Shown here: piece by piece, positions 1-10,170 of the stretch
How positions within the stretch are numbered: position 1 is the first letter of the stretch
How the letters are laid out: each line of letters starts with the position of its first letter
IMG/VR virus record: IMGVR_UViG_2703718835_000004
DNA length: 10,170 bases
Reading direction: 5' to 3' (one strand)
Source of the DNA: a virus
Taxonomy: Duplodnaviria; Heunggongvirae; Uroviricota; Caudoviricetes
Notes under the pieces: generated by a model
Databases searched by the model: none
What the model was told of the DNA's origin: nothing
What the model saw: only the letters and a program-made list of their open reading frames with translations
Made by a program: the position numbers and the translations under genes

Positions 1-521
1 TCTGAGTCCGTCACATTGTTCAGCGACAGGTCTGCACAGATGATTTCATGTGTGTTACTGTCAACGGCGAGATGCAGCTTACGCCAGATACGGCGGCGTT
101 CCTGGCCATGCTTTTTGACTTTCCACTCGCCTTCACCGAAGACCTTCAGCCCGGTGGAATCAATTACCAGGTGTGCGATTTCACCCCGGGTGGGCGTTTT
201 GAAACTGACATTAACCGACTTTGCCCGCCTGCTGACACAGCTGTAATCCGGGCAGCGTAGCGGAACGTTCATCAGAGAAAAAATGGAATCAATAAAGCCC
301 TGCGCAGCGCGCAGGGTCAGCCTGAATACGCGTTTAATGACCAGCACAGTCGTGATGGCAAGGTCAGAATAGCGCTGAGGTCTGCCTCGTGAAGAAGGTG
401 TTGCCGACTCATACCAGGCCTGAATCGCCCCATCATCCAGCCAGAAAGTGAGGGAGCCACGGTTGATGAGGGCTTTATTGTAGGTGGGCCAGTTGGTTAT
501 TTTGAACTTTTGCTTTGCCAC
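1..521 (-). CDS. IS903-family DDE transposase, N-terminal ~173 codons (3' part of the gene lies outside the window)
   Basis: Uninterrupted minus-strand frame from a GTG at 521-519 to the window edge; an in-frame TTG further upstream is an alternative start. It is absent from the ORF track because there is no stop codon inside the window. Translation is typical of IS903-group transposases. Confidence 0.8.
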   Translation of the reverse strand, partial: MAKQKFKITNWPTYNKALINRGSLTFWLDDGAIQAWYESATPSSRGRPQRYSDLAITTVLVIKRVFRLTLRAAQGFIDSIFSLMNVPLRCPDYSCVSRRAKSVNVSFKTPTRGEIAHLVIDSTGLKVFGEGEWKVKKHGQERRRIWRKLHLAVDSNTHEIICADLSLNNVTDS

Positions 522-598
522 GGAACGGTCTGCGTTGTCGGGAAGATGCGTGATCTGATCCTTCAACTTAGCAAAAGTTCGATTTATTCAACAAAGCC
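1..598 (-). mobile_element. IS903-family (IS5 family) insertion sequence, terminal ~600 bp including one 18-bp inverted repeat; the rest of the element lies beyond the window start
   Basis: Positions 581-598 (gatttattcaacaaagcc) are the reverse complement of the IS903 terminal inverted repeat GGCTTTGTTGAATAAATC. The adjoining ~500 bp closely resembles, with a few substitutions, the IS903 arm that flanks aph(3')-Ia in Tn903-derived kanamycin cassettes, as I remember it. A minus-strand reading frame runs from 521 to position 1 with no stop and translates to a DDE transposase N-terminus (VAKQKFKITNWPTYNKALINRGSLTFWLDD...). Confidence 0.85.
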
Positions 599-949
599 AC
601 TTCAATCTACAAAATTGAGCACATCACTGTTGGCAAGCCAGGATCTGAACAATACCGTCATGCTTTCGAGCTTGCCGATCAGCTTGGTTTAAAACACCCG
701 GATTGCATCGAGCATGTATTTCCGACCTATGCTGATGAGCAATGTACTCATGTCCTTACCGAAGAGGATTTTTTCAGCACTGAAGAACGAGAAGGCGTTG
801 ATCGCTGCATTGGTGTGATTTGCTCTTCAGTGAGTTATGAGTTATTCCCTAATGTCCATGAAAATGGTGGTATTGGATACCAATTCCTGTACGAAGGCGA
901 TGAGCTTAAATGTTATGAACATGGTCTTCTTATCGAAAGCGTAGAATAA
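599..949 (+). pseudogene. 3' remnant (~116 codons) of a gene truncated by the IS903-family insertion; function unknown
   Basis: Frame 2 is open from the IS boundary to a TAA at 947-949 and contains no ATG; the first internal GTG would give only ~45 aa. The frame continues back into the IS inverted repeat, as expected if the IS was inserted into a pre-existing gene. Translation (...HITVGKPGSEQYRHAFELADQLGLKHPDCIEHVFPTYADEQCTHVLTEEDFF...GGIGYQFLYEGDELKCYEHGLLIESVE) has protein-like composition, and a hairpin terminator follows. Confidence 0.45.
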
Positions 950-962
950 TACCCTTCCTTCC

Positions 963-986
963 AACCGGCTATGTTGGCCGGTTTTT
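963..986 (+). terminator. Putative intrinsic terminator of the truncated upstream gene
   Basis: Stem aaccggc (963-969) pairs with gccggtt (977-983) around a 7-nt loop, followed by a T run (982-986), 14 bp after the TAA at 947-949. Confidence 0.4.
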
Positions 987-1010
987 CACTTATCCACATT
1001 ATCCACTGGG

Positions 1011-1068
1011 TAGATCCAATAATTAGGTCCATACAGATCCCAATTAGATCCATATAGATCCCTGATCG
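1011..1068. repeat. Cluster of five GATC (Dam) sites in heptamer-like repeats (AGATCCA/AGATCCC)
   Basis: GATC at 1013-1016, 1036-1039, 1047-1050, 1057-1060 and 1064-1067. P1 oriR is known to need Dam methylation of such a cluster. Confidence 0.75.
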
Positions 1069-1106
1069 TTGCAGGCCGCGCCACGTCTGGCTTAGAAGTG
1101 TATCGC

Positions 1107-1189
1107 GATGTGTGCTGGAGGGAAAACGATGTGTGCTGGAGGGATAAAAATGTGTGCTGGCGGGATATAGGATGTGTGCTGACGGGAAA
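1107..1189 (+). repeat. incC-type iterons: four direct 19-bp RepA-binding repeats
   Basis: GATGTGTGCTGGAGGGAAA (1107-1125), GATGTGTGCTGGAGGGATA (1128-1146), AATGTGTGCTGGCGGGATA (1149-1167) and GATGTGTGCTGACGGGAAA (1171-1189), spaced 21-22 bp apart (two helical turns). Confidence 0.9.
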
Positions 1190-1245
1190 GCCTGGGTAGT
1201 TATCACCACTTATAAAAACTATCCACATAATTCGGAAAAAGTAAT

Positions 1246-2106
1246 ATGAATCAATCATTTATCTCCGATATTCTTTACGCAGACATTGAAAGTAAGGCAA
1301 AAGAACTAACAGTTAATTCAAACAACACTGTGCAGCCTGTAGCGTTGATGCGCTTGGGGGTATTCGTTCCGAAGCCATCAAAGAGCAAAGGAGAAAGTAA
1401 AGAGATTGATGCCACCAAAGCGTTTTCCCAGCTGGAGATAGCTAAAGCCGAGGGTTACGATGATATTAAAATCACCGGTCCTCGACTCGATATGGATACT
1501 GATTTCAAAACGTGGATCGGTGTCATCTACGCGTTCAGCAAATACGGCTTGTCTTCAAACACCATCCAGTTATCGTTTCAGGAGTTCGCTAAAGCCTGTG
1601 GTTTCCCCTCAAAACGTCTGGATGCGAAACTGCGTTTAACCATTCATGAATCACTTGGACGCTTGCGTAACAAGGGTATCGCTTTTAAGCGCGGAAAAGA
1701 TGCTAAAGGCGGCTATCAGACTGGTCTGCTGAAGGTCGGGCGTTTTGATGCTGACCTTGATCTGATAGAGCTGGAGGCCGATTCGAAGCTCTGGGAGCTG
1801 TTCCAGCTTGATTATCGCGTTCTGTTGCAACACCACGCCTTGCGTGCCCTTCCGAAGAAAGAAGCTGCACAAGCCATTTACACTTTCATCGAAAGCCTTC
1901 CGCAGAACCCGTTGCCGCTATCGTTCGCGCGAATCCGTGAGCGCCTGGCTTTGCAGTCAGCTGTTGGCGAGCAAAACCGTATCATTAAGAAAGCGATAGA
2001 ACAGCTTAAAACAATTGGCTATCTCGACTGTTCAATTGAGAAGAAAGGCCGGGAAAGTTTTGTAATCGTCCATTCTCGCAATCCAAAGCTGAAACTTCCC
2101 GAATAA
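1246..2106 (+). CDS. repA: RepA plasmid replication initiator (P1-type iteron-binding initiator), 286 aa
   Basis: 286-aa ORF flanked on both sides by its own iterons. The length and the N-terminal sequence (MNQSFISDILYADIESKAKELT...) match my recollection of phage P1 RepA. The stop codon overlaps the first downstream iteron. Confidence 0.92.
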   Translation: MNQSFISDILYADIESKAKELTVNSNNTVQPVALMRLGVFVPKPSKSKGESKEIDATKAFSQLEIAKAEGYDDIKITGPRLDMDTDFKTWIGVIYAFSKYGLSSNTIQLSFQEFAKACGFPSKRLDAKLRLTIHESLGRLRNKGIAFKRGKDAKGGYQTGLLKVGRFDADLDLIELEADSKLWELFQLDYRVLLQHHALRALPKKEAAQAIYTFIESLPQNPLPLSFARIRERLALQSAVGEQNRIIKKAIEQLKTIGYLDCSIEKKGRESFVIVHSRNPKLKLPE

Positions 2107-2236
2107 GTGTGTGCTGGAGGGCAGCTGCATTTGAAAAATGTGCGCTGCCGGGAATGCCTGCCCATTTTCCTGTTTTTGGTGTGCGCTGGAGGGTTGCGCC
2201 ACGCAGTTTGCCCAGACATTCCCTCCAGCACACATC
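2105..2236. repeat. incA-type iteron cluster downstream of repA (three direct, one inverted)
   Basis: Iteron cores at 2106-2121 (AGTGTGTGCTGGAGGG), 2138-2154 (ATGTGCGCTGCCGGGAA, degenerate) and 2178-2193 (GGTGTGCGCTGGAGGG), plus an inverted perfect copy at 2221-2236 (ccctccagcacacatc, reverse complement of GATGTGTGCTGGAGGG). Confidence 0.8.
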
Positions 2237-2258
2237 TAATAGCCTCATCGCCATTTCT

Positions 2259-2322
2259 TTACGTGCAATAATTTACGCACGAATCAAAATAAGTTGCACG
2301 TAGCAGAATCAAACGTACAATT
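2259..2322 (+). promoter_or_regulatory. parAB promoter with overlapping inverted-repeat operator
   Basis: Candidate sigma70 promoter with -35 TTGCAC (2294-2299) and -10 TACAAT (2316-2321), 16-bp spacer. A perfect 9-bp inverted repeat, TACGTGCAA (2260-2268) and TTGCACGTA (2294-2302), overlaps the -35. Type Ia ParA proteins are known to autorepress through such operators. Confidence 0.5.
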
Positions 2323-2345
2323 CACTCATACGAAATGATAAGGAG

Positions 2346-3557
2346 ATGATGATGAAACGCGATTACGGCGGTGTCGGCACCATAGCTCTTCGTGCAAGCG
2401 CATTACTTAAGGCCATGAGTCAGGATATTGAAGATCAGCGCAAAGAGTTCAATCAGACCGAGTATTATCAGACGTTCACTCGTAACGCTGTGGCAAAGTT
2501 GCCGAAGCTGAGCCGCCGCATTGTGGAGCAGGCCATCAAAGAGATGGAAGATGATGGGTACCAGTTCAACAAGAAACAGGTCGGTAACGTTGAACAGTAC
2601 GCGCTGACCATCCAGAACGTCATTGATATCTATGCCCACCGTAAGATCCCAAAATATCGCGACATTCACAAATCGCCTTACGTTATTTTTGTCGTAAACC
2701 TGAAGGGTGGCGTATCCAAAACGGTTTCCACAGTCACGTTGGCGCACGCTCTGCGTGTGCATCAGGATTTACTGCGTCACGATCTGCGCATTCTGGTAAT
2801 TGACCTTGACCCTCAGGCATCCAGCACAATGTTCCTCGACCATACTCACAGTATTGGTTCCATCCTGGAAACCGCCGCGCAGGCGATGCTGAACGACTTG
2901 GACGCGGAGACGCTACGCAAAGAGGTGATTCGTCCGACCATTGTTCCTGGCGTAGACGTGATTCCAGCCTCTATCGACGATGGCTTTGTTGCCAGCCAAT
3001 GGAAAGAGCTGGTTGAAGAGCATCTTCCCGGACAAAATCAGTACGAAATCCTTCGACGCAATATCATTGATCGTGTTGCTGATGATTATGACTTTATCTT
3101 TATTGATACCGGTCCACACCTGGATCCGTTCCTGCTCAACGGTCTGGCGGCCAGCGATTTGCTGCTTACCCCTACCCCACCAGCCCAGGTTGACTTCCAC
3201 TCAACACTGAAATATCTCACCCGTCTGCCAGAAATGCTGGAGCAACTGGAGGAGGAAGGCGTAGAACCGCGTTTAAGCGCCAGCATTGGTTTTATGTCGA
3301 AGATGACCGGCAAGCGCGATCACGAGACATCACACAGCCTTGCGCGTGAGGTTTACGCCAGCAACATTCTGGACTCTTCTCTGCCTCGTCTGGATGGATT
3401 TGAGCGATGCGGCGAGTCTTTCGACACCGTAATCAGTGCCAACCCGCAATCGTATCCAGGCAGTGCAGAGGCGCTGAAGAAGGCACGAACCGAGGCCGAG
3501 CGTTTCACTAAGGCTGTGTTTGATCGAATTGAGTTTGTTAGGGGTGAGGCGGCATGA
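2346..3557 (+). CDS. parA: ParA partition ATPase, type Ia (P1/P7 family), with N-terminal regulatory extension
   Basis: Deviant Walker A motif KGGVSKT (residues 120-126, nt 2703-2723) after a ~100-aa N-terminal extension; overall clearly similar to, but not identical with, P1 ParA as I recall it. Three consecutive ATGs at 2346-2354 follow an AGGAG at 2341-2345, so the real start is probably the second or third ATG (2349 or 2352). Confidence 0.92.
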   Translation: MMMKRDYGGVGTIALRASALLKAMSQDIEDQRKEFNQTEYYQTFTRNAVAKLPKLSRRIVEQAIKEMEDDGYQFNKKQVGNVEQYALTIQNVIDIYAHRKIPKYRDIHKSPYVIFVVNLKGGVSKTVSTVTLAHALRVHQDLLRHDLRILVIDLDPQASSTMFLDHTHSIGSILETAAQAMLNDLDAETLRKEVIRPTIVPGVDVIPASIDDGFVASQWKELVEEHLPGQNQYEILRRNIIDRVADDYDFIFIDTGPHLDPFLLNGLAASDLLLTPTPPAQVDFHSTLKYLTRLPEMLEQLEEEGVEPRLSASIGFMSKMTGKRDHETSHSLAREVYASNILDSSLPRLDGFERCGESFDTVISANPQSYPGSAEALKKARTEAERFTKAVFDRIEFVRGEAA

Positions 3558-4519
3558 AAAAAATAGTTTCCCGTGGACGAGTGCTGGGCAAGAATAGCTC
3601 CGAGTTTGCTCGCATGCTTGAAGGCAGTGAAGGCACCAAAACCTTTACCCTAAAATCTGGCCGCCAGGCTAAATTTTTGCTTACCGTTGTGCTGAGTGGT
3701 GAGATTGAGTCGCGCACGTTCGTTGACCCGGCAGTTAACGGCCGCGATCAGTCTCTGCTCACCCCTGAGTCGGTAAGCGATATTTCCCGCACCATTAAAT
3801 TGCAACAGTTCTTCCCGGCTATCGGTCGTATGGTTGGGGAGCGCATTGAGGTATTGGACGGATCACGTCGCCGCGCTGCGTGTATCTTCAATGAAACGAA
3901 ATTTGAGATTCTGGTGACGAAAGATGAGATCAGCCTGGCGGATGCACGCCAGCTGGCCATTGATATCCAGACAGCCCGCGAACACACCCTGCGCGAACTG
4001 GGTAAACGCTTCGAGGTTATGTATGGTAAGAGCATGACCAAAGAAGAGATCGCCCGCGCTGAGAACATTTCAAAGGCTAAAGTTACGCGCGCGTTCCAGG
4101 CGGCAGCGGTGCCGGATGAGATGATTGCTGTCTTCCCTGTTGCCAGCGATCTCGCCCTGCCAGATTACCAGTTACTGCTCCAGATCTCCGAGGATGCCAA
4201 CGCTAAAAGCGTGCCTATTGAAGAGCTGGTTGATACGGTGCGCGAACGAATTGCAGAGACTGAGGGCGCGAAAGAGGATAAAGCGAAGATACTGGCTATC
4301 TTCAAAGCGGAAAGCAAAAGCCTGAAGCCCGCGCCGGTTAAATCTGTGGTGGTTGAGAAGCTGCGAGACTTCTCTGACCGTCGCCAATATGCTCGAAAGA
4401 AGTCCGATCCGAAAAAACGGGTTGTCGCCTACGAGTTCTCCAGACTCCCGTCTGAAGTGCAAACTGAAATTGACGAAGCAATAAAAAAAATCATTGGGAA
4501 AATGTCTGCTGGGGAATAA
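3554..4519 (+). CDS. parB: ParB centromere-binding partition protein (P1/P7 family), 321 aa
   Basis: Start codon overlaps the parA stop (ATGA at 3554-3557), implying translational coupling. Sits between parA and a parS-like site; conserved stretches (GRDQSLLTP, ILDGSRRRAA, AKVTRAFQAA) resemble P1 ParB. Confidence 0.9.
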   Translation: MKKIVSRGRVLGKNSSEFARMLEGSEGTKTFTLKSGRQAKFLLTVVLSGEIESRTFVDPAVNGRDQSLLTPESVSDISRTIKLQQFFPAIGRMVGERIEVLDGSRRRAACIFNETKFEILVTKDEISLADARQLAIDIQTAREHTLRELGKRFEVMYGKSMTKEEIARAENISKAKVTRAFQAAAVPDEMIAVFPVASDLALPDYQLLLQISEDANAKSVPIEELVDTVRERIAETEGAKEDKAKILAIFKAESKSLKPAPVKSVVVEKLRDFSDRRQYARKKSDPKKRVVAYEFSRLPSEVQTEIDEAIKKIIGKMSAGE

Positions 4520-4559
4520 TTCCGCTGGTGGGAGGTGGTGTTAGCCCCTCCCCTTTCTA

Positions 4560-4650
4560 AAATGTCCCGCACCAATTTCATTGCTAACCTTGTGATTTGC
4601 ATGTGTTTTTTAGGAGAATTTCAGACTGAAATTCCCACGATTTAACGCCT
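4560..4650 (+). other. parS-like partition site (centromere analogue): heptamer and hexamer ParB boxes around an IHF-like site
   Basis: Right arm AATTTCAG-ACTGAAAT-TCCCAC-GATTTAAC (4617-4646) is arranged like the P1 parS right arm as I recall it. Left arm has TCCCGC (4565-4570) and ATTTCAT (4575-4581). Between them, an IHF-consensus-like AATCACAAGGTTA lies on the minus strand at about 4586-4598. Confidence 0.7.
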
Positions 4651-4703
4651 GCATTCACCGTCCACTTCCCCGCACAAAAAATTTAAAAAATTACTTTTCG
4701 CGA

Positions 4704-4733
4704 GAAAGTCAACAAGTGACTTTCAATAAAATC
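4704..4733 (+). promoter_or_regulatory. Candidate late-type promoter for the structural operon: inverted repeat upstream of an A/T-rich -10
   Basis: Perfect 8-bp inverted repeat GAAAGTCA (4704-4711) / TGACTTTC (4717-4724) with a 5-bp spacer, followed by TAAAAT (4727-4732) and no recognisable -35. P1 late promoters are known to pair a -10 with an upstream conserved element bound by the late activator in place of a -35. Confidence 0.4.
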
Positions 4734-4783
4734 TCTTCCGAAAAGGGATTCACACAAGTGCCTTGTGTTTAAGGAAGAGTAAA

Positions 4784-6490
4784 TTGAGTAACTTACGCGA
4801 ATACCAGAATCGTATTGCAGATATCGCAAAACGCTCTAAAGCTGTGCTTGGCTGGGCAAGCACTGCGCAGTTCGGTACTGATAACCAATTCATTAAAGAT
4901 GATGCCGCGCGTGCCGCATCTATCCTTGAAGCTGCACGTAAAGACCCGGTTTTTGCGGGTATCTCTGATAATGCCACCGCTCAAATCGCTACAGCGTGGG
5001 CAAGTGCACTGGCTGACTACGCCGCAGCACATAAATCTATGCCGCGTCCGGAAATTCTGGCCTCCTGCCACCAGACGCTGGAAAACTGCCTGATTGAGTC
5101 CACCCGCAATAGCATGGATGCCACTAATAAAGCGATGCTGGAATCCGTCGCAGCAGAGATGATGAGCGTTTCTGACGGTGTTATGCGTCTGCCTTTATTC
5201 CTCGCGATGATCCTGCCTGTTCAGTTGGGGGCAGCTACCGCTGATGCGTGTACCTTCATTCCGGTTACGCGTGACCAGTCCGACATCTATGAAGTCTTTA
5301 ACGTGGCAGGTTCATCTTTTGGTTCTTATGCTGCTGGTGATGTTCTGGACATGCAATCCGTCGGTGTGTACAGCCAGTTACGTCGCCGCTATGTGCTGGT
5401 GGCAAGCTCCGATGGCACCAGCAAAACCGCAACCTTCAAGATGGAAGACTTCGAAGGCCAGAATGTACCAATCCGAAAAGGTCGCACTAACATCTACGTT
5501 AACCGTATTAAGTCTGTTGTTGATAACGGTTCCGGCAGCCTACTTCACTCGTTTACTAATGCTGCTGGTGAGCAAATCACTGTTACCTGCTCTCTGAACT
5601 ACAACATTGGTCAGATTGCCCTGTCGTTCTCCAAAGCGCCGGATAAAGGCACTGAGATCGCAATTGAGACGGAAATCAATATTGAAGCCGCTCCTGAGCT
5701 GATCCCGCTGATCAACCACGAAATGAAGAAATACACCCTGTTCCCAAGTCAGTTCGTTATCGCGGCTGAGCACACGGTACAGGCGGCGTATGAAGCACAG
5801 CGTGAATTTGGTCTGGACCTGGGTTCCCTACAGTTCCGCACCCTGAAGGAATACCTGTCTCATGAACAGGATATGCTGCGTCTTCGCATCATGATCTGGC
5901 GTACTCTTGCGACCGACACCTTTGACATCGCTCTGCCGGTTAACCAGTCCTTTGATGTATGGGCAACCATCATTCGTGGCAAATTCCAGACTGTATATCG
6001 CGACATTATTGAGCGCGTTAAATCTTCTGGTGCGATGGGGATGTTTGCTGGTGCTGATGCAGCATCTTTCTTCAAACAGTTGCCGAAGGATTTCTTCCAG
6101 CCAGCCGAAGACTATATCCAGACTCCGTATGTTCACTACATCGGTACCCTGTTCGGTAACGTGAAAGTGTACGAAGTACCTGCTGGTATTTGTAAGAACT
6201 TAACGACAGAGAACATTCAGTTCAGCTCGATGGATGTGCTGTGCTACGTCCGTGATGAAAATCCGGGTAAAGCAGGCTTCGTGACTGGTGATGCTGTCCC
6301 GGCCATCCCGTTCCAGCATCCGACCACTCCGGCGCTGGTCAACCGTACCACGCTGTGGGGTTCGGCTATCAACGATATGCACCCACGCAACGGCGCTGAT
6401 TACTTCACTCGTGTAACGCTGACAATGGCCAAAAAAGGCGGGCTTAACTTTATAAGCGGCGACACGATTGATGCCGGTGACTCTGAGTAA
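4784..6490 (+). CDS. Putative major head (capsid) protein, ~568 aa; probable TTG start
   Basis: Long ORF (track 4763-6490) with no in-frame ATG for ~90 codons. The TTG at 4784 lies 6 nt after a strong AAGGAAG (4771-4777). It is the first gene of an operon immediately after parS and before the sheath gene; size (~62 kDa) and position match the P1 major head gene next to par, from memory. Function is inferred from synteny and size only. Confidence 0.5.
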   Translation: MSNLREYQNRIADIAKRSKAVLGWASTAQFGTDNQFIKDDAARAASILEAARKDPVFAGISDNATAQIATAWASALADYAAAHKSMPRPEILASCHQTLENCLIESTRNSMDATNKAMLESVAAEMMSVSDGVMRLPLFLAMILPVQLGAATADACTFIPVTRDQSDIYEVFNVAGSSFGSYAAGDVLDMQSVGVYSQLRRRYVLVASSDGTSKTATFKMEDFEGQNVPIRKGRTNIYVNRIKSVVDNGSGSLLHSFTNAAGEQITVTCSLNYNIGQIALSFSKAPDKGTEIAIETEINIEAAPELIPLINHEMKKYTLFPSQFVIAAEHTVQAAYEAQREFGLDLGSLQFRTLKEYLSHEQDMLRLRIMIWRTLATDTFDIALPVNQSFDVWATIIRGKFQTVYRDIIERVKSSGAMGMFAGADAASFFKQLPKDFFQPAEDYIQTPYVHYIGTLFGNVKVYEVPAGICKNLTTENIQFSSMDVLCYVRDENPGKAGFVTGDAVPAIPFQHPTTPALVNRTTLWGSAINDMHPRNGADYFTRVTLTMAKKGGLNFISGDTIDAGDSE

Positions 6491-6516
6491 TCAGGGGAAG
6501 TTCTCCGTTTAACATA

Positions 6517-6534
6517 GCGCCCCGTGCGGGGCGC
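6517..6534 (+). other. GC-rich hairpin between the head and sheath genes (no U tract)
   Basis: gcgcccc (6517-6523) pairs with ggggcgc (6528-6534) around a gtgc loop, 27 nt after the stop of the head gene; the following sequence is not T-rich, so it is not a classic terminator. Confidence 0.4.
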
Positions 6535-6549
6535 ATAACAGGGAAAGTT

Positions 6550-8139
6550 ATGTCTCAATATTCAATTCAACAGTCATTAGGTAATGCATCCGGTGTCGCT
6601 GTTAGCCCGATCAATGCCGATGCGACGTTATCTACCGGTGTTGTATTAAATAGCAGCTTGTGGGCAGGTATTGGTGTATTTGCGCGTGGCAAGCCGTTTA
6701 CTGTTCTTGCGGTTACTGAGTTCAATTACGAAGATGTTCTCGGCGAACCGCTGAAGCCGTCCTCCGGCTCACAGTTCGAACCAATTCGCCATGTGTACGA
6801 AGCTATTCAGCAAACGTCTGGTTATGTTGTCCGTGCTGTTCCGGATGATGCGAAGTTCCCGATTATTATGTTCGATGAATCAGGCGAACCGGCTTACAGT
6901 GCGTTGCCATACGGTTCTGAAATTGAACTTGATAGCGGCGAAGCCTTTGCTATCTACGTTGATGATGGTGATCCGTGTATTTCTCCTACCCGTGAGTTAA
7001 CCATCGAAACGGCAACAGCGGACAGCGCGGGTAATGAACGCTTCCTCTTAAAACTGACCCAGACGACTTCGCTCGGTGTGGTAACGACCCTGGAGACACA
7101 CACTGTGTCTTTGGCGGAAGAAGCGAAAGATGACATGGGCCGCTTGTGTTATCTGCCTACGGCTCTGGAAGCCCGTTCTAAATATCTGCGCGCGGTTGTT
7201 AATGAAGAGCTGATTTCGACGGCGAAAGTAACAAATAAAAAATCGCTGGCGTTCACTGGCGGTACCAACGGCGATCAGTCGAACATTTCCACTGCTGTTT
7301 ACCTGCGTGCGGTGAAAGTGCTGAACAATGCGCCGTACATGTACACCGCTGTTCTCGGCCTGGGTTGCTATGACAATGCGGCGATCACTGCGTTAGGTAA
7401 TATCTGTTCTGATCGCTTGATTGATGGCTTCTTTGATGTCAAACCGACATTGACGTACACGGAAGCGATCTCTGCTGTTGAAGATACCGGTTTACTTGGT
7501 ACCGATTATGTAAGCTGTGCTGTCTATCATTTCCCGTTCTCCTGCAAAGACAAATGGACCCAATCCCGCGTGGTCTTCGGTCTGTCTGGCGCGGCGTATG
7601 CGGCGAAAGCTCGTGGCGTCAAGAAAAACTCCGATGTCGGCGGTTGGCATTACTCACCGGCTGGTGAAGAACGTGCCGTCATTGCTCGTGCATCACTTCA
7701 GCCGCTGTATCCTGAAGACACCCCGGACGAAGAAGCTATGGTCAAGGGCCGACTCAATAAAGTATCTGTAGGTACTTCGGGCCAGATGATCATCGATGAT
7801 GCTTTAACTTGCTGCACGCAGGACAACTATCTGCATTTCCAGCACGTCCCATCCCTGATGAACGCAATCAGCCGTTTCTTTGTCCAGTTAGCCCTACAGA
7901 TGAAGCATAACCCGGACGGCATTACTGAGTCTGGCCTGACTAAAGGGATGACCAAACTTTTGGATCGCTTTGTCGCCTCCGGCGCTCTGGTGGCTCCTCG
8001 TGATCCTGATGCTGACGGTACAGAACCGTATGTGCTGAAAGTTACGCAGGCGGAATTCGATAAATGGGAAGTAGTCTGGGCCTGCTGCCCGACTGGCGTA
8101 GCCCGTCGTATCCAGGGCGTACCGCTGCTTATTAAGTAA
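6550..8139 (+). CDS. Contractile tail sheath protein, 529 aa
   Basis: The central/C-terminal region carries a pattern I recognise from myovirus sheath proteins such as P2 FI (...AFTGGTNGDQSN...AVYLRAV..., ...AAYAAKARGVKKNSDVGGWHYSPAG...). Size (~57 kDa) and position directly after the head gene are consistent. Confidence 0.7.
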   Translation: MSQYSIQQSLGNASGVAVSPINADATLSTGVVLNSSLWAGIGVFARGKPFTVLAVTEFNYEDVLGEPLKPSSGSQFEPIRHVYEAIQQTSGYVVRAVPDDAKFPIIMFDESGEPAYSALPYGSEIELDSGEAFAIYVDDGDPCISPTRELTIETATADSAGNERFLLKLTQTTSLGVVTTLETHTVSLAEEAKDDMGRLCYLPTALEARSKYLRAVVNEELISTAKVTNKKSLAFTGGTNGDQSNISTAVYLRAVKVLNNAPYMYTAVLGLGCYDNAAITALGNICSDRLIDGFFDVKPTLTYTEAISAVEDTGLLGTDYVSCAVYHFPFSCKDKWTQSRVVFGLSGAAYAAKARGVKKNSDVGGWHYSPAGEERAVIARASLQPLYPEDTPDEEAMVKGRLNKVSVGTSGQMIIDDALTCCTQDNYLHFQHVPSLMNAISRFFVQLALQMKHNPDGITESGLTKGMTKLLDRFVASGALVAPRDPDADGTEPYVLKVTQAEFDKWEVVWACCPTGVARRIQGVPLLIK

Positions 8140-8148
8140 GGAAATACA

Positions 8149-8964
8149 ATGAGCAAAAACTTTTTTCAATCCGGGGCATTTTTGGGGAATGGACTGTCTC
8201 GTTTCGCTTTGAACTCTGATCTTGTGCAGTTGATGGAGTCTGCCCGAGCAAGCGCCGAACCGACAATAGATCCGGTTATTAATAATAATCCGGAACCGGC
8301 GGCACAGACTAACGATAATGCTCCATCTGCCACGGCTCCTGAGCAAATCCTGGAAGGGAAAGACGGTAAAGAATGGACCGTCGAACAGGCGCACCAGATG
8401 ATTCTGGAAGCTGCAAATCGAAGTGCTATGCAGAATGCGTTGAGTGATGCGGCCGACGCCGTTTTCGCCTGGGCTGATAGCGGTGATCTGACTTTCGACT
8501 CCCTTGATGGTTTCGTTCAGGCTATCGCTGGTATCTCTGATGACGACGACTCCGAAGTTACAGAAGAACAGGACGATGCCTATAACGAAGCATGGGCAAA
8601 TGTTGCTGACTTCCTCGCAGCATGCGGTGTAGATGATGACCTGATCGAAGCACTGGCTGACGATGAAGACGACGACGCAGCTGCTGATGTTGGTGCCTCT
8701 ATCGCTGGTTTAGATAGCGACGACCGCGACGAACTGGAAGCGGCGTTTGTTGTTGCTGGCACTTCTGATGAAATGCTGACTGAAGCATTTAAGAAGGTTG
8801 TTCGTAACGGTGAGATCAAACTCATCCGTAAACGCCTGCGTAAAAAACGTCTGACTGCGGCTCAAAAATCGGCGCTGAAAAAAGCGCGTCGAAAAGCCCA
8901 GACCGGCGCGGCAAAACTTGCCCGCAAAAAGTCAATGAAACTGCGCCGTAAGCGCCTTGGCTAA
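8149..8964 (+). CDS. Hypothetical virion-module protein, 271 aa, strongly acidic body with a highly basic C-terminal tail
   Basis: ATG at 8149 lies 5 nt after AAGGAAA. The body contains acidic runs (DDDDSEVTEEQDD, DDEDDDAAAD, DSDDRDELE); the last ~56 residues contain about 26 Lys/Arg (LIRKRLRKKRLTAAQKSALKKARRKAQTGAAKLARKKSMKLRRKRLG). No family recognised. Confidence 0.7.
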   Translation: MSKNFFQSGAFLGNGLSRFALNSDLVQLMESARASAEPTIDPVINNNPEPAAQTNDNAPSATAPEQILEGKDGKEWTVEQAHQMILEAANRSAMQNALSDAADAVFAWADSGDLTFDSLDGFVQAIAGISDDDDSEVTEEQDDAYNEAWANVADFLAACGVDDDLIEALADDEDDDAAADVGASIAGLDSDDRDELEAAFVVAGTSDEMLTEAFKKVVRNGEIKLIRKRLRKKRLTAAQKSALKKARRKAQTGAAKLARKKSMKLRRKRLG

Positions 8965-8990
8965 AGGAGGAGGCCGGAGAACTCCGGCCT
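8965..8990 (+). promoter_or_regulatory. Shine-Dalgarno sequence separated from its start codon by a stable hairpin (split ribosome-binding site)
   Basis: AGGAGGAGG at 8965-8973 follows the upstream stop; a hairpin at 8971-8990 (7-8 bp GC-rich stem, loop gaac) precedes ATG 9000. There is no SD within 5-12 nt of the ATG, and an in-frame TGA at 8997-8999 rules out an earlier start. Confidence 0.4.
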
Positions 8991-8999
8991 TTAACTTGA

Positions 9000-9581
9000 A
9001 TGGCTCCTATAGCTTATGGGGTTTACAGCCAGGCTGACGGTGTATCGCCATATCTGAAAGTTACTTTAACGAACTCTCAGTACCAGGTTACCGGATATAT
9101 CAGCCAGGGAGCGGCAATGAACATGGCCCAGAATTGGGAAGCGCCGTTTACCGGTATGTCCATGGGATCTGTTTCTGGTGCTCTGGGTGGTTTTGTGCAA
9201 GTAGGTACTGAAACAACGTCGGTTGCCCGTTGGAATAGCTTAATGGTTTGGGAAGGGGGGACTCCGCCGACGTTCACGCTGCCTGTAACTTTCATTGCTT
9301 TGAACAATCCATTCATTGAAGTTTCAGGCGCTATCGCCGCGTTGACAGCCATGATTAGCCCGGAACTAAAAGCGGCCAATGTTGGTGGTCGAATCCCGGA
9401 GCGCGTGACGCTAAACATTGGTCGCCGGATCAACATCACCGATGTCGCCATCCAGGACTTAAGTTTTGATCTCGATGCGCCAAGGGACAGTAATGGATAT
9501 TTCCTGAAAAACACCGTCAACCTCCAGTTGACCGGTTCTTCGATATATAACAGCTCCGATATTGTTCGGGCGTTCCAGTAA
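9000..9581 (+). CDS. Hypothetical phage structural protein, 193 aa (tail tube or other tail component is possible)
   Basis: Co-directional ORF in the sheath operon with protein-like composition; size (~21 kDa) fits a tail-tube-class protein, but no motif was recognised. Confidence 0.6.
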   Translation: MAPIAYGVYSQADGVSPYLKVTLTNSQYQVTGYISQGAAMNMAQNWEAPFTGMSMGSVSGALGGFVQVGTETTSVARWNSLMVWEGGTPPTFTLPVTFIALNNPFIEVSGAIAALTAMISPELKAANVGGRIPERVTLNIGRRINITDVAIQDLSFDLDAPRDSNGYFLKNTVNLQLTGSSIYNSSDIVRAFQ

Positions 9582-9592
9582 AAGGATTTTAT

Positions 9593-10102
9593 ATGGGGCA
9601 CAATAACACTAAGGGAAACCGTAAATTTATTAAGGGCCGCTATACTGCCAACGCGGCCAAAGGCGAACGACTGGTATCTTCTGAATTCCAGCTCACTTTT
9701 GCAGGCCATGAAGATATCAGCGTACTGGTTCGTACGTCGCAAATCCCTGAAATGACTCGAGAGAATGTGGAGGACTATGGTCCGAATGGTGTGAAGTTCA
9801 ACCAGCACGGACCAATTCGAAACTCTGGGGAAATCCAGGTCCAGTGCGTGGAGACTATCGAAGGCGATATTCTTCAGTTCATTAAGGATCGCATTGCGGC
9901 GAAGGACTATGTTGATATCACGATGGCTGCTACCCCTGAATCCAAATCTTCCGGGGTTAACGCTGTGACAAAAGCTGCTACAACAATTGAAATGTTGGAC
10001 TGCAAAATCTACAGTGATGCAATCGACTTTAGTACCGAAGATGTGACTGCCGCTGTGCGCCCGTCACTTCGTATCGTCTACAACTGGATTGAGTGGGATT
10101 AA
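9593..10102 (+). CDS. Hypothetical phage structural protein, 169 aa (tail-associated candidate)
   Basis: ATG at 9593 lies 5 nt after AAGGA (9583-9587), 11 nt after the previous stop; the gene is followed by a strong intrinsic terminator, as expected for an abundantly expressed structural gene. Confidence 0.6.
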   Translation: MGHNNTKGNRKFIKGRYTANAAKGERLVSSEFQLTFAGHEDISVLVRTSQIPEMTRENVEDYGPNGVKFNQHGPIRNSGEIQVQCVETIEGDILQFIKDRIAAKDYVDITMAATPESKSSGVNAVTKAATTIEMLDCKIYSDAIDFSTEDVTAAVRPSLRIVYNWIEWD

Positions 10103-10121
10103 GAGTCATCCCTTGTATTTT

Positions 10122-10148
10122 AAAGCTCCTTCGGGAGCTTTTTTATTT
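10122..10148 (+). terminator. Rho-independent terminator with a UUCG tetraloop
   Basis: Stem aaagctcc (10122-10129) pairs with ggagcttt (10134-10141) around loop ttcg, followed by a T run (TTTTTTATTT, 10139-10148), 20 nt after the TAA at 10100-10102. Confidence 0.85.
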
Positions 10149-10170
10149 GGAGTGACCCGTCCTGAATAGC

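Follow-up and report, generated by a model that had tools for sequence, protein, structure and literature searches.

The region between the partition site and the major head gene of the DNA analysed here, a stretch of 10,170 nt (the window), holds at 4714-4732 what is very probably the late promoter LP23 of a P1/P7-type (Punavirus) element. The promoter parts are a 9-bp inverted repeat, AAGTGACTT, and the -10 hexamer TAAAAT. The perfect 21-bp palindrome that the original prediction had placed at this site is, judging from the comparison of relatives, a clade-specific by-product around this real element and not the functional unit.

The window carries replication, partition and late genes of the P1/P7 type

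Positions 588-10144 of the window were ~97% identical to P7, with the same gene order, and the window was also ~97% identical to P1 wherever P1 aligns, its par genes being of the P7 type. The order oriR/repA, parA, parB, parS, 23, 22, 21, pmgG, bplB is that of P1 and P7. Profile searches confirmed RepA, ParA and ParB, and the features by which Punavirus membership is judged, that is, an IncY RepA-iteron replicon, ParA/ParB/parS and structural genes in P1 order, were all present. Rfam gave no RNA family match anywhere in the window. The genes and sites that frame the promoter are as follows:

1..598 (no strand assigned): terminal part of an IS903-family element, next to a truncated upfA; an HK022 record that carries IS903 matches it at 97.7% identity
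2346..3557 (+): parA, P7-type; PHROG ParA-like, E 1e-139; Pfam ParA HTH and AAA_31; P7 annotation
3554..4519 (+): parB, P7-type; PHROG ParB-like, E 3e-124; Pfam ParB; P7 annotation
4564..4646 (+): parS centromere, box B1 to box A4; P7 annotation via alignment, box A motifs read directly
4772..4780 (+): ribosome-binding region of gene 23, AAGGAAGAG, read from the sequence; its positions 4774-4780 are the 3′ arm of a tentative helix discussed below
4784..6490 (+): gene 23, major capsid protein, TTG start; PDB 9ukm_A residues 1-568, full-length; phrog_1014, E 1.6e-252; P1 annotation
6550..8139 (+): gene 22, tail sheath; PDB Gp22 8jaj_a residues 1-529; PHROG tail sheath, E 1e-228
8149..8964 (+): gene 21, baseplate or tail tube; phrog_1053; P1 annotation
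9000..9581 (+): pmgG, morphogenesis; PHROG PmgG-like, E 4e-80; P1 annotation
9593..10102 (+): bplB, tail tube or baseplate; PHROG tail tube protein, E 2e-82; P1 annotation

The genes downstream of the palindrome had been taken to be structural, and the HMM check bore this out: the capsid protein Gp23 and the sheath protein Gp22 match solved structures over their full length, and the PHROG sheath, PmgG and tail-tube families were also found. The five late reading frames all have the same lengths as in P1. At the left end of the window, an IS903-type element truncates upfA; its terminal repeat, CGATTTATTCAACAAAGCC, lies at 580-598 and homology to P7 begins at 588. The P7 genome itself contains an annotated IS903. 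No record spanning the IS903/upfA junction was found in PLSDB or among complete E. coli genomes.

The limits of the intergenic region were set as follows. Carrying over the P7 annotation by alignment placed the start of box B(1) of parS at 4564 and the end of box A(4) at 4646, and the box A motifs ATTTCAT (4575-4581) and ATTTAAC (4640-4646) could be read in the window. The first in-frame start codon of gene 23 after the preceding stop is the TTG at 4763; the ribosome-binding sequence precedes the TTG at 4784 instead, which is the start annotated in both P1 and P7 and is consistent with the 568-residue chain of Gp23 in the PDB. Since parS ends at 4646 and gene 23 starts at 4784, the gap measures 137 bp, as against the previous estimate of about 130 bp. 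The P1-like vicinity of head gene and partition locus was likewise recovered, the order par-parS-23-22-21-pmgG-bplB being exactly that of P1 and P7.

The palindrome upstream of gene 23 contains the annotated promoter LP23

Direct reading of the sequence located the palindrome at 4704-4724, formed by the arms GAAAGTCA (4704-4711) and TGACTTTC (4717-4724) around the five bases ACAAG (4712-4716). Two bases, AA, separate it from TAAAAT (4727-4732), so that a perfect palindrome upstream of this hexamer is present as originally claimed. With up to 3 mismatches allowed, the palindrome pattern was found at a single site in the window; 0.04 matches were expected from shuffled sequences, and one match or more turned up in 9 out of 200 shuffles.

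Both the P1 and the P7 GenBank records annotate a 'predicted late promoter LP23' at this very site. In these records, the '-22 region' of LP23 is AAGTGACTT and its -10 is TAAAAT, which correspond to 4714-4722 and 4727-4732 of the window. The site is thus the orthologue of an annotated late promoter and matches the motif AAGTNACTT at 8 out of 8 specified positions, which upholds the suggested likeness to the activator-dependent late promoters of P1. The elements of the promoter region are:

4704..4724 (no strand assigned): 8-N5-8 palindrome GAAAGTCA ACAAG TGACTTTC, from sequence reading and pattern search
4714..4722 (+): 9-bp inverted repeat AAGTGACTT, the '-22 region' or Lpa box of LP23; coincides with the P1 and P7 features
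4727..4732 (+): -10 hexamer TAAAAT of LP23; minus_10_signal of LP23 in P1 and P7
4740..4740 (+): predicted transcription start, deduced from geometry (box centre 4718 taken as -22; a G lies here, 8 nt past the hexamer)

The 21-bp palindrome consists of the 9-bp box, the TC that follows it and the upstream complement GAAAGTCA. Its centre is at 4714 and the dyad of the box at 4718, that is, the centre of the box is displaced 4 bp to the right. Box and hexamer are separated by a 4-bp spacer, TCAA, and eight of the nine late promoters annotated in P7 are spaced in the same way. The hexamer ends up 51 nt upstream of the capsid gene. From 4702 to gene 23, the window equals P1 base for base and differs from P7 at a single position just before the start codon. 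Upstream of 4702 the three sequences diverge: the par genes of the window are of the P7 type and the central parS differs from both P7 and P1. LP23 of P1 (AF234172) and LP23 of P7 (AF503408) thus share with the window the same site, box, spacer length and hexamer, without any difference in the promoter. A consensus scan of 4300-4900 found no sigma-70 promoter with a -35/-10 pair, which fits an activator-dependent promoter. The palindrome finding is therefore correct but ordinary, as it contains a promoter that was already annotated, and adds nothing new to it. Promoter activity, Lpa dependence and start site are inferred for LP23, and the records themselves word it as 'predicted'; in the accessible literature we found neither start-site mapping nor a test of Lpa dependence for LP23, nor start-site data for P1 late promoters in general.

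The 9-bp core and the -10 hexamer recur at P7 late promoters

All but one of the nine late promoters annotated in P7 fit the pattern NNAC-AAGTNACTT-N4-TANNNT; in LPsit, the exception, the box measures 8 nt and the spacer 5 nt. Over the first 100 kb of P7, the pattern AAGTNACTT-N4-TANNNT gave 3 perfect matches (LP23, LPs and LPdar) versus 0.1 in shuffled sequences, and 11 matches with at most one mismatch, including LPmat, LPpro, LPpac and LPlyz, versus 2.1 in shuffles. The P1 late promoters LPs/Ps, LPdar, LPsit, LPlyz, LPpro and LPmat, which unlike LP23 are annotated without the word 'predicted', resemble it in showing NNAC-AAGTNACTT-N4-TANNNT, in lacking a -35 hexamer and in lying upstream of morphogenesis or lysis operons; for these promoters, dependence on Lpa and on the host protein SspA has been published. 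What sets LP23 apart from them is the extra upstream complement that completes a 21-bp palindrome. The left arm GAAAGTCA was seen nowhere but at LP23 of P1/P7-clade members, and the remaining annotated late promoters of P7 lack it. Of the 101.7 kb of the P7 genome, the first 100 kb were scanned, and the full palindrome occurs there at LP23 only; the one other site within 3 mismatches of it lies inside nmpC. Hence, uniqueness of the palindrome, which had been named as a sign against the late-promoter reading, holds literally for the 21-bp sequence in the scanned part of P7 and not for its 9-bp core. In the same way, the interpretation of the palindrome as a late-promoter element was right as to the promoter and wrong as to its limits, the unit common to late promoters being the 9-bp AAGTGACTT at 4714-4722.

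Conservation of the promoter region in relatives

We gathered about 250 loci of the head gene by scanning viral, genome and metagenome collections, by protein search and by looking up contigs, and grouped them into 30 clusters of upstream sequence; the scan of genome contigs contributed 4 of the loci. In ~196 P1-like loci, the left arm of the 21-bp palindrome was invariant, except for one locus with apparent indels, while the sequence a few bases upstream varies. Across divergent head-gene loci, the most conserved intergenic stretch was the block GTCAAC-AAGTGACTT-TCAA-TAAAAT. The lineages nearest to the P1/P7 group were L084 and Cronobacter phage JK004 (~80% Gp23 identity), followed by L172 from Pantoea (77%). 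In these, the block reads GTCAAC-A(A/T)(G/A)T(G/C)ACTT-TC(A/C)A-TAA(A/T)AT and is again the best-conserved intergenic part. Box, 4-bp spacer and -10 were kept even at ~57-63% Gp23 identity, for instance as ATGTAACTT-tcct-TACCAT in contigs of Chimaeribacter, Nissabacter and Citrobacter, and the box became unrecognisable below ~50%. A conserved G-AAA(A)G starts at the position equivalent to 4740 in divergent lineages.

The left arm followed a different course. It is not conserved in L084, JK004, L172, L100 and L101. In L084 and JK004, CTTG or GTTT stands in place of its GAAA, and in L172 TGAC has become TCAC with GTCA kept. The right arm is altered to TTGC in L100, to TTAC in L101 and to TTTT in L064 and L079, without compensation. 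Distant P1-like elements (JK004 and the Pantoea, Nissabacter, Chimaeribacter and Citrobacter contigs) keep box, spacer and -10 before the Gp23 homologue and lack the left arm; in these elements the head gene is often not beside par, and toxin-antitoxin genes, a methylase or a strong terminator lie upstream. As far as these alignments go, the left arm gives no sign of being maintained as a palindrome. It may nevertheless have a clade-specific role, because a perfect 8-bp complement is unlikely to arise by chance and is invariant in the ~196 P1-like loci.

Other readings of the site

These data allow the remaining explanations of the palindrome to be weighed. The entire 21 bp might be a functional operator, bound for example by a dimer of Lpa dimers or by a separate repressor of the head promoter. 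The perfection of the palindrome, its low expectation in the window (~0.04 matches) and its invariance in the P1/P7-like variants sampled, the indel locus apart, speak for an operator, but the sequence is unique in the scanned part of P7 and no left arm occurs at other annotated late promoters, the relatives named above (L084, JK004, L100, L101, L064, L079 and L172) break the arms without compensation, and the centre at 4714 is offset by 4 bp from the conserved dyad of the box at 4718. We therefore consider such an operator improbable. It is the lack of maintenance of the left arm in relatives, together with the displaced centre, that leads us to regard the palindrome as a by-product surrounding LP23.

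Still less probable is that the palindrome acts as an RNA hairpin in par read-through transcripts, insulating the late operon as a terminator or attenuator. Such a hairpin would have 8 bp and a folding energy of -9.1 kcal/mol (z = -2.1), and since the scan detected no canonical terminator between parB and gene 23, read-through from par is plausible. However, the hairpin is not followed by a U-tract (the next bases are AAUAAAAUCUCUU), the terminator scan makes no call at the palindrome and the arms do not covary in relatives; for want of both U-tract and covariation, a terminator or attenuator was rejected. We give an equally small chance to an ordinary constitutive sigma-70 promoter, or to no promoter at all, with a palindrome arisen by chance. 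The annotators of P1 did predict two sigma-70 promoters here, P1 23 and P2 23. Yet no -35/-10 pair passes the scan, and the -35 of P1 23, TTGTCA in P1, has become TTTTCG in the window and TTTTAG in P7. Box plus hexamer, moreover, show strong enrichment at late operons and have been kept in deeply diverged lineages.

Proposed mode of action of LP23

A 9-bp inverted repeat and a -10 hexamer in the absence of a -35 constitute the published signature of Lpa-dependent promoters; transcription from such promoters is expected to begin ~7-8 nt past the hexamer. Late gene expression requires Lpa (PMC8198154, PMC8201110), which acts together with the host protein SspA, presumed to make contacts with the polymerase as well as with Lpa on the DNA (PMC1891329). 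Applying this published knowledge by homology, host sigma-70 RNA polymerase would use the -10 TAAAAT at LP23, and the place of the -35 hexamer would be taken by AAGTGACTT, ~22 bp before the predicted start at G4740. Lpa (gp10), the phage's activator of late promoters, would bind to this repeat and work with SspA, a protein associated with the host RNA polymerase. LP23 would then drive the late operon 23-22-21-pmgG-bplB. No Lpa homologue was found in the 10-kb window; in P7, lpa lies ~35 kb away.

A sequence between the -10 and the predicted start is complementary to the gene 23 ribosome-binding region

Directly after the -10 hexamer come 7 nt whose complement overlaps the ribosome-binding site of gene 23:

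4733..4739 (+): CTCTTCC, tentative anti-Shine-Dalgarno arm; complementary to GGAAGAG (4774-4780) in the ribosome-binding region of gene 23

The resulting 7-bp helix appears in both the minimum-energy and the centroid folds of 4725-4800, a segment whose folding energy is not unusual (z = -1.2). The complementarity was tested only after the pattern had been noticed, and we relied on duplex statistics, since gap placement by MAFFT in the first clade left two registers unaligned. For the arm in the window, the duplex statistic gave p ~0.007. When the 8 nt downstream of the -10 were shuffled with their composition kept, p values of 0.004-0.04 resulted in 11 of 15 lineages, and the other 4 showed nothing. 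Elsewhere the arm pairs with other letters, as in L084 (TTGTCCT/AGGACAA), L092 (CGAGCC/GGCTCG) and L091 (CAAGCC/GGCTTG). In the second clade, a formal covariation count found the helix 94% paired with no double-sided changes; it is conserved, not covarying. The predicted cost of opening the ribosome-binding site was 5.4 kcal/mol in the long RNA versus 0.8 kcal/mol in the short one. When the arm was shuffled as a control, the effect was strong in L091 and L092 and weak in the window, where 8 out of 50 shuffles did as well. Among late promoters, a post-hexamer complement to the ribosome-binding site of the first gene was significant at LP23 alone and marginal at LPdar, and the arm was consequently rejected as a general feature of P1 late promoters.

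The restriction to LP23, the lack of covariation in the second clade, the weak shuffle control in the window and the choice of the test after the fact all speak against a function of the arm. We hold it doubtful that the 6-7 nt between the -10 and the predicted start act as an anti-Shine-Dalgarno arm by pairing with the ribosome-binding region of gene 23. In such a scheme, the Lpa-dependent transcript would begin just past the arm and only RNAs initiated upstream, by par read-through or at weak sigma-70 starts, would carry it. With a start at ~4740, the arm would be missing from the late transcript, and the ribosome-binding site would be occluded in read-through RNA alone.

Implications for P1/P7-derived elements

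The P1/P7 ancestry of the window is certain. The closest complete plasmid examined, E. coli CX04 plasmid unnamed2, is 99.2% identical to it over 625-10152. This plasmid, an IncY mosaic, has retained rep-par-23-22-21-bplB, kilA/repL, c1, lpa and phd/doc; the remainder contains IS26, IS1, sil, ttr and other cargo genes, and most of the morphogenesis genes have been lost. Because the same block occurs in a decayed mosaic plasmid, an intact prophage is not proven from the 10 kb seen and, since IncY mosaics retain it, the par-LP23-23 block is insufficient to call an intact phage-plasmid. The original inference of a phage-plasmid rather than a conventional plasmid thus stands with regard to ancestry and does not extend beyond it.

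The LP23 site shows that the window derives from P1/P7 and indicates where the late head-tail operon begins. Its importance beyond annotation is small. An Lpa-type late promoter can be recognised from the sequence alone, and scans for late promoters are better made with the 9-bp core and the -10 (AAGTNACTT-N4-TANNNT) than with the 21-bp palindrome. The anti-Shine-Dalgarno arm, if true, would leave the capsid gene translationally silent in the lysogen and the late mRNA open, so that transcript isoforms would be told apart at translation by sequence belonging to the promoter itself. If real, it would explain how a constitutively transcribed par operon can lie 137 bp from the capsid gene without leaky capsid synthesis.

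Possible pairing between the late promoter region and the gene 23 ribosome-binding region

The 7 nt that lie between the -10 hexamer of LP23, the predicted late promoter of the head gene, and its predicted start (CTCTTCC, 4733-4739) are complementary to GGAAGAG (4774-4780) in the ribosome-binding region of gene 23. In other lineages this complementarity is preserved with changed letters (TTGTCCT/AGGACAA, CGAGCC/GGCTCG and CAAGCC/GGCTTG), and the statistics for the pairing are suggestive over the lineages and weak for the window itself. The 4733-4739 segment may act as an anti-Shine-Dalgarno arm that is present only in read-through RNA.

The leader of gene 23 also contains a local hairpin of 7 bp at 4752-4770 (ACACAAG-TGC-CTTGTGT), which is invariant among P1/P7-like loci, save for a single variant in which a T is replaced by C, and is not kept in the clade of about 80% identity. 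A leader motif at 4740-4762, G/TC-AAAAG-N3-(C)TTCAC, starts at the predicted LP23 start and is also found at L234, L242, L246, L175 and further loci, 5′ of homologues of the head protein Gp23 with protein identity as low as about 44%. At about 44% identity the Lpa box is absent and a TTGAC-type -35 hexamer is present, and the leader motif is retained. In the lineages with a TTGAC-type -35 and no Lpa box, the ribosome-binding site lies under a local hairpin (GCCC...GGGC).

The partition site and its surroundings

The centre of parS, between box A1 and box A2 (4582-4617), shows strong differences from P7 and P1 alike, in which an IHF site is annotated between these two boxes. Despite this divergence the boxes on either side are preserved; the sequence of box A4 is ATTTAAC in place of ATTTCAC. 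The parS of the window may be a variant. Directly past the parB stop codon, a G+C-rich inverted repeat (4527-4556; GGTGGGAGG...CCCCTCCCC) is followed by TTTCT. This repeat is common to the window and P7 but missing from P1, and its run of Ts is too short for the terminator scan to call it.

The left end and the closest plasmid relative

At the left end of the window, upfA, which is next to oriR, is 5′-truncated and adjoins the following feature:

1-598, end of an IS903-family element, whose terminal repeat CGATTTATTCAACAAAGCC lies at 580-598

No record spanning the IS903/upfA junction was found among PLSDB or complete E. coli genomes. Among the complete plasmids examined, the closest was E. 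coli CX04 plasmid unnamed2 (NZ_CP081715.1; L258/L259), with 99.2% identity over 625-10152. This plasmid is a decayed IncY mosaic that retains rep-par-23-22-21-bplB, kilA/repL, c1, lpa and phd/doc amid IS26, IS1 and sil and ttr cargo genes; most morphogenesis genes are absent and pmgG appears to be disrupted.

Genes upstream of the head gene in other lineages

In other lineages, toxin-antitoxin or methylase genes occupy the position 5′ of the head gene. In the L174 lineage (GCA_000307305.1, DF158889.1; Gp23 identity 52%), a partition cassette encoding a small ParA and ParG (2292-3201) lies immediately 5′ of the head gene. Since this cassette is non-homologous, the par-next-to-head layout recurs with the par system swapped.
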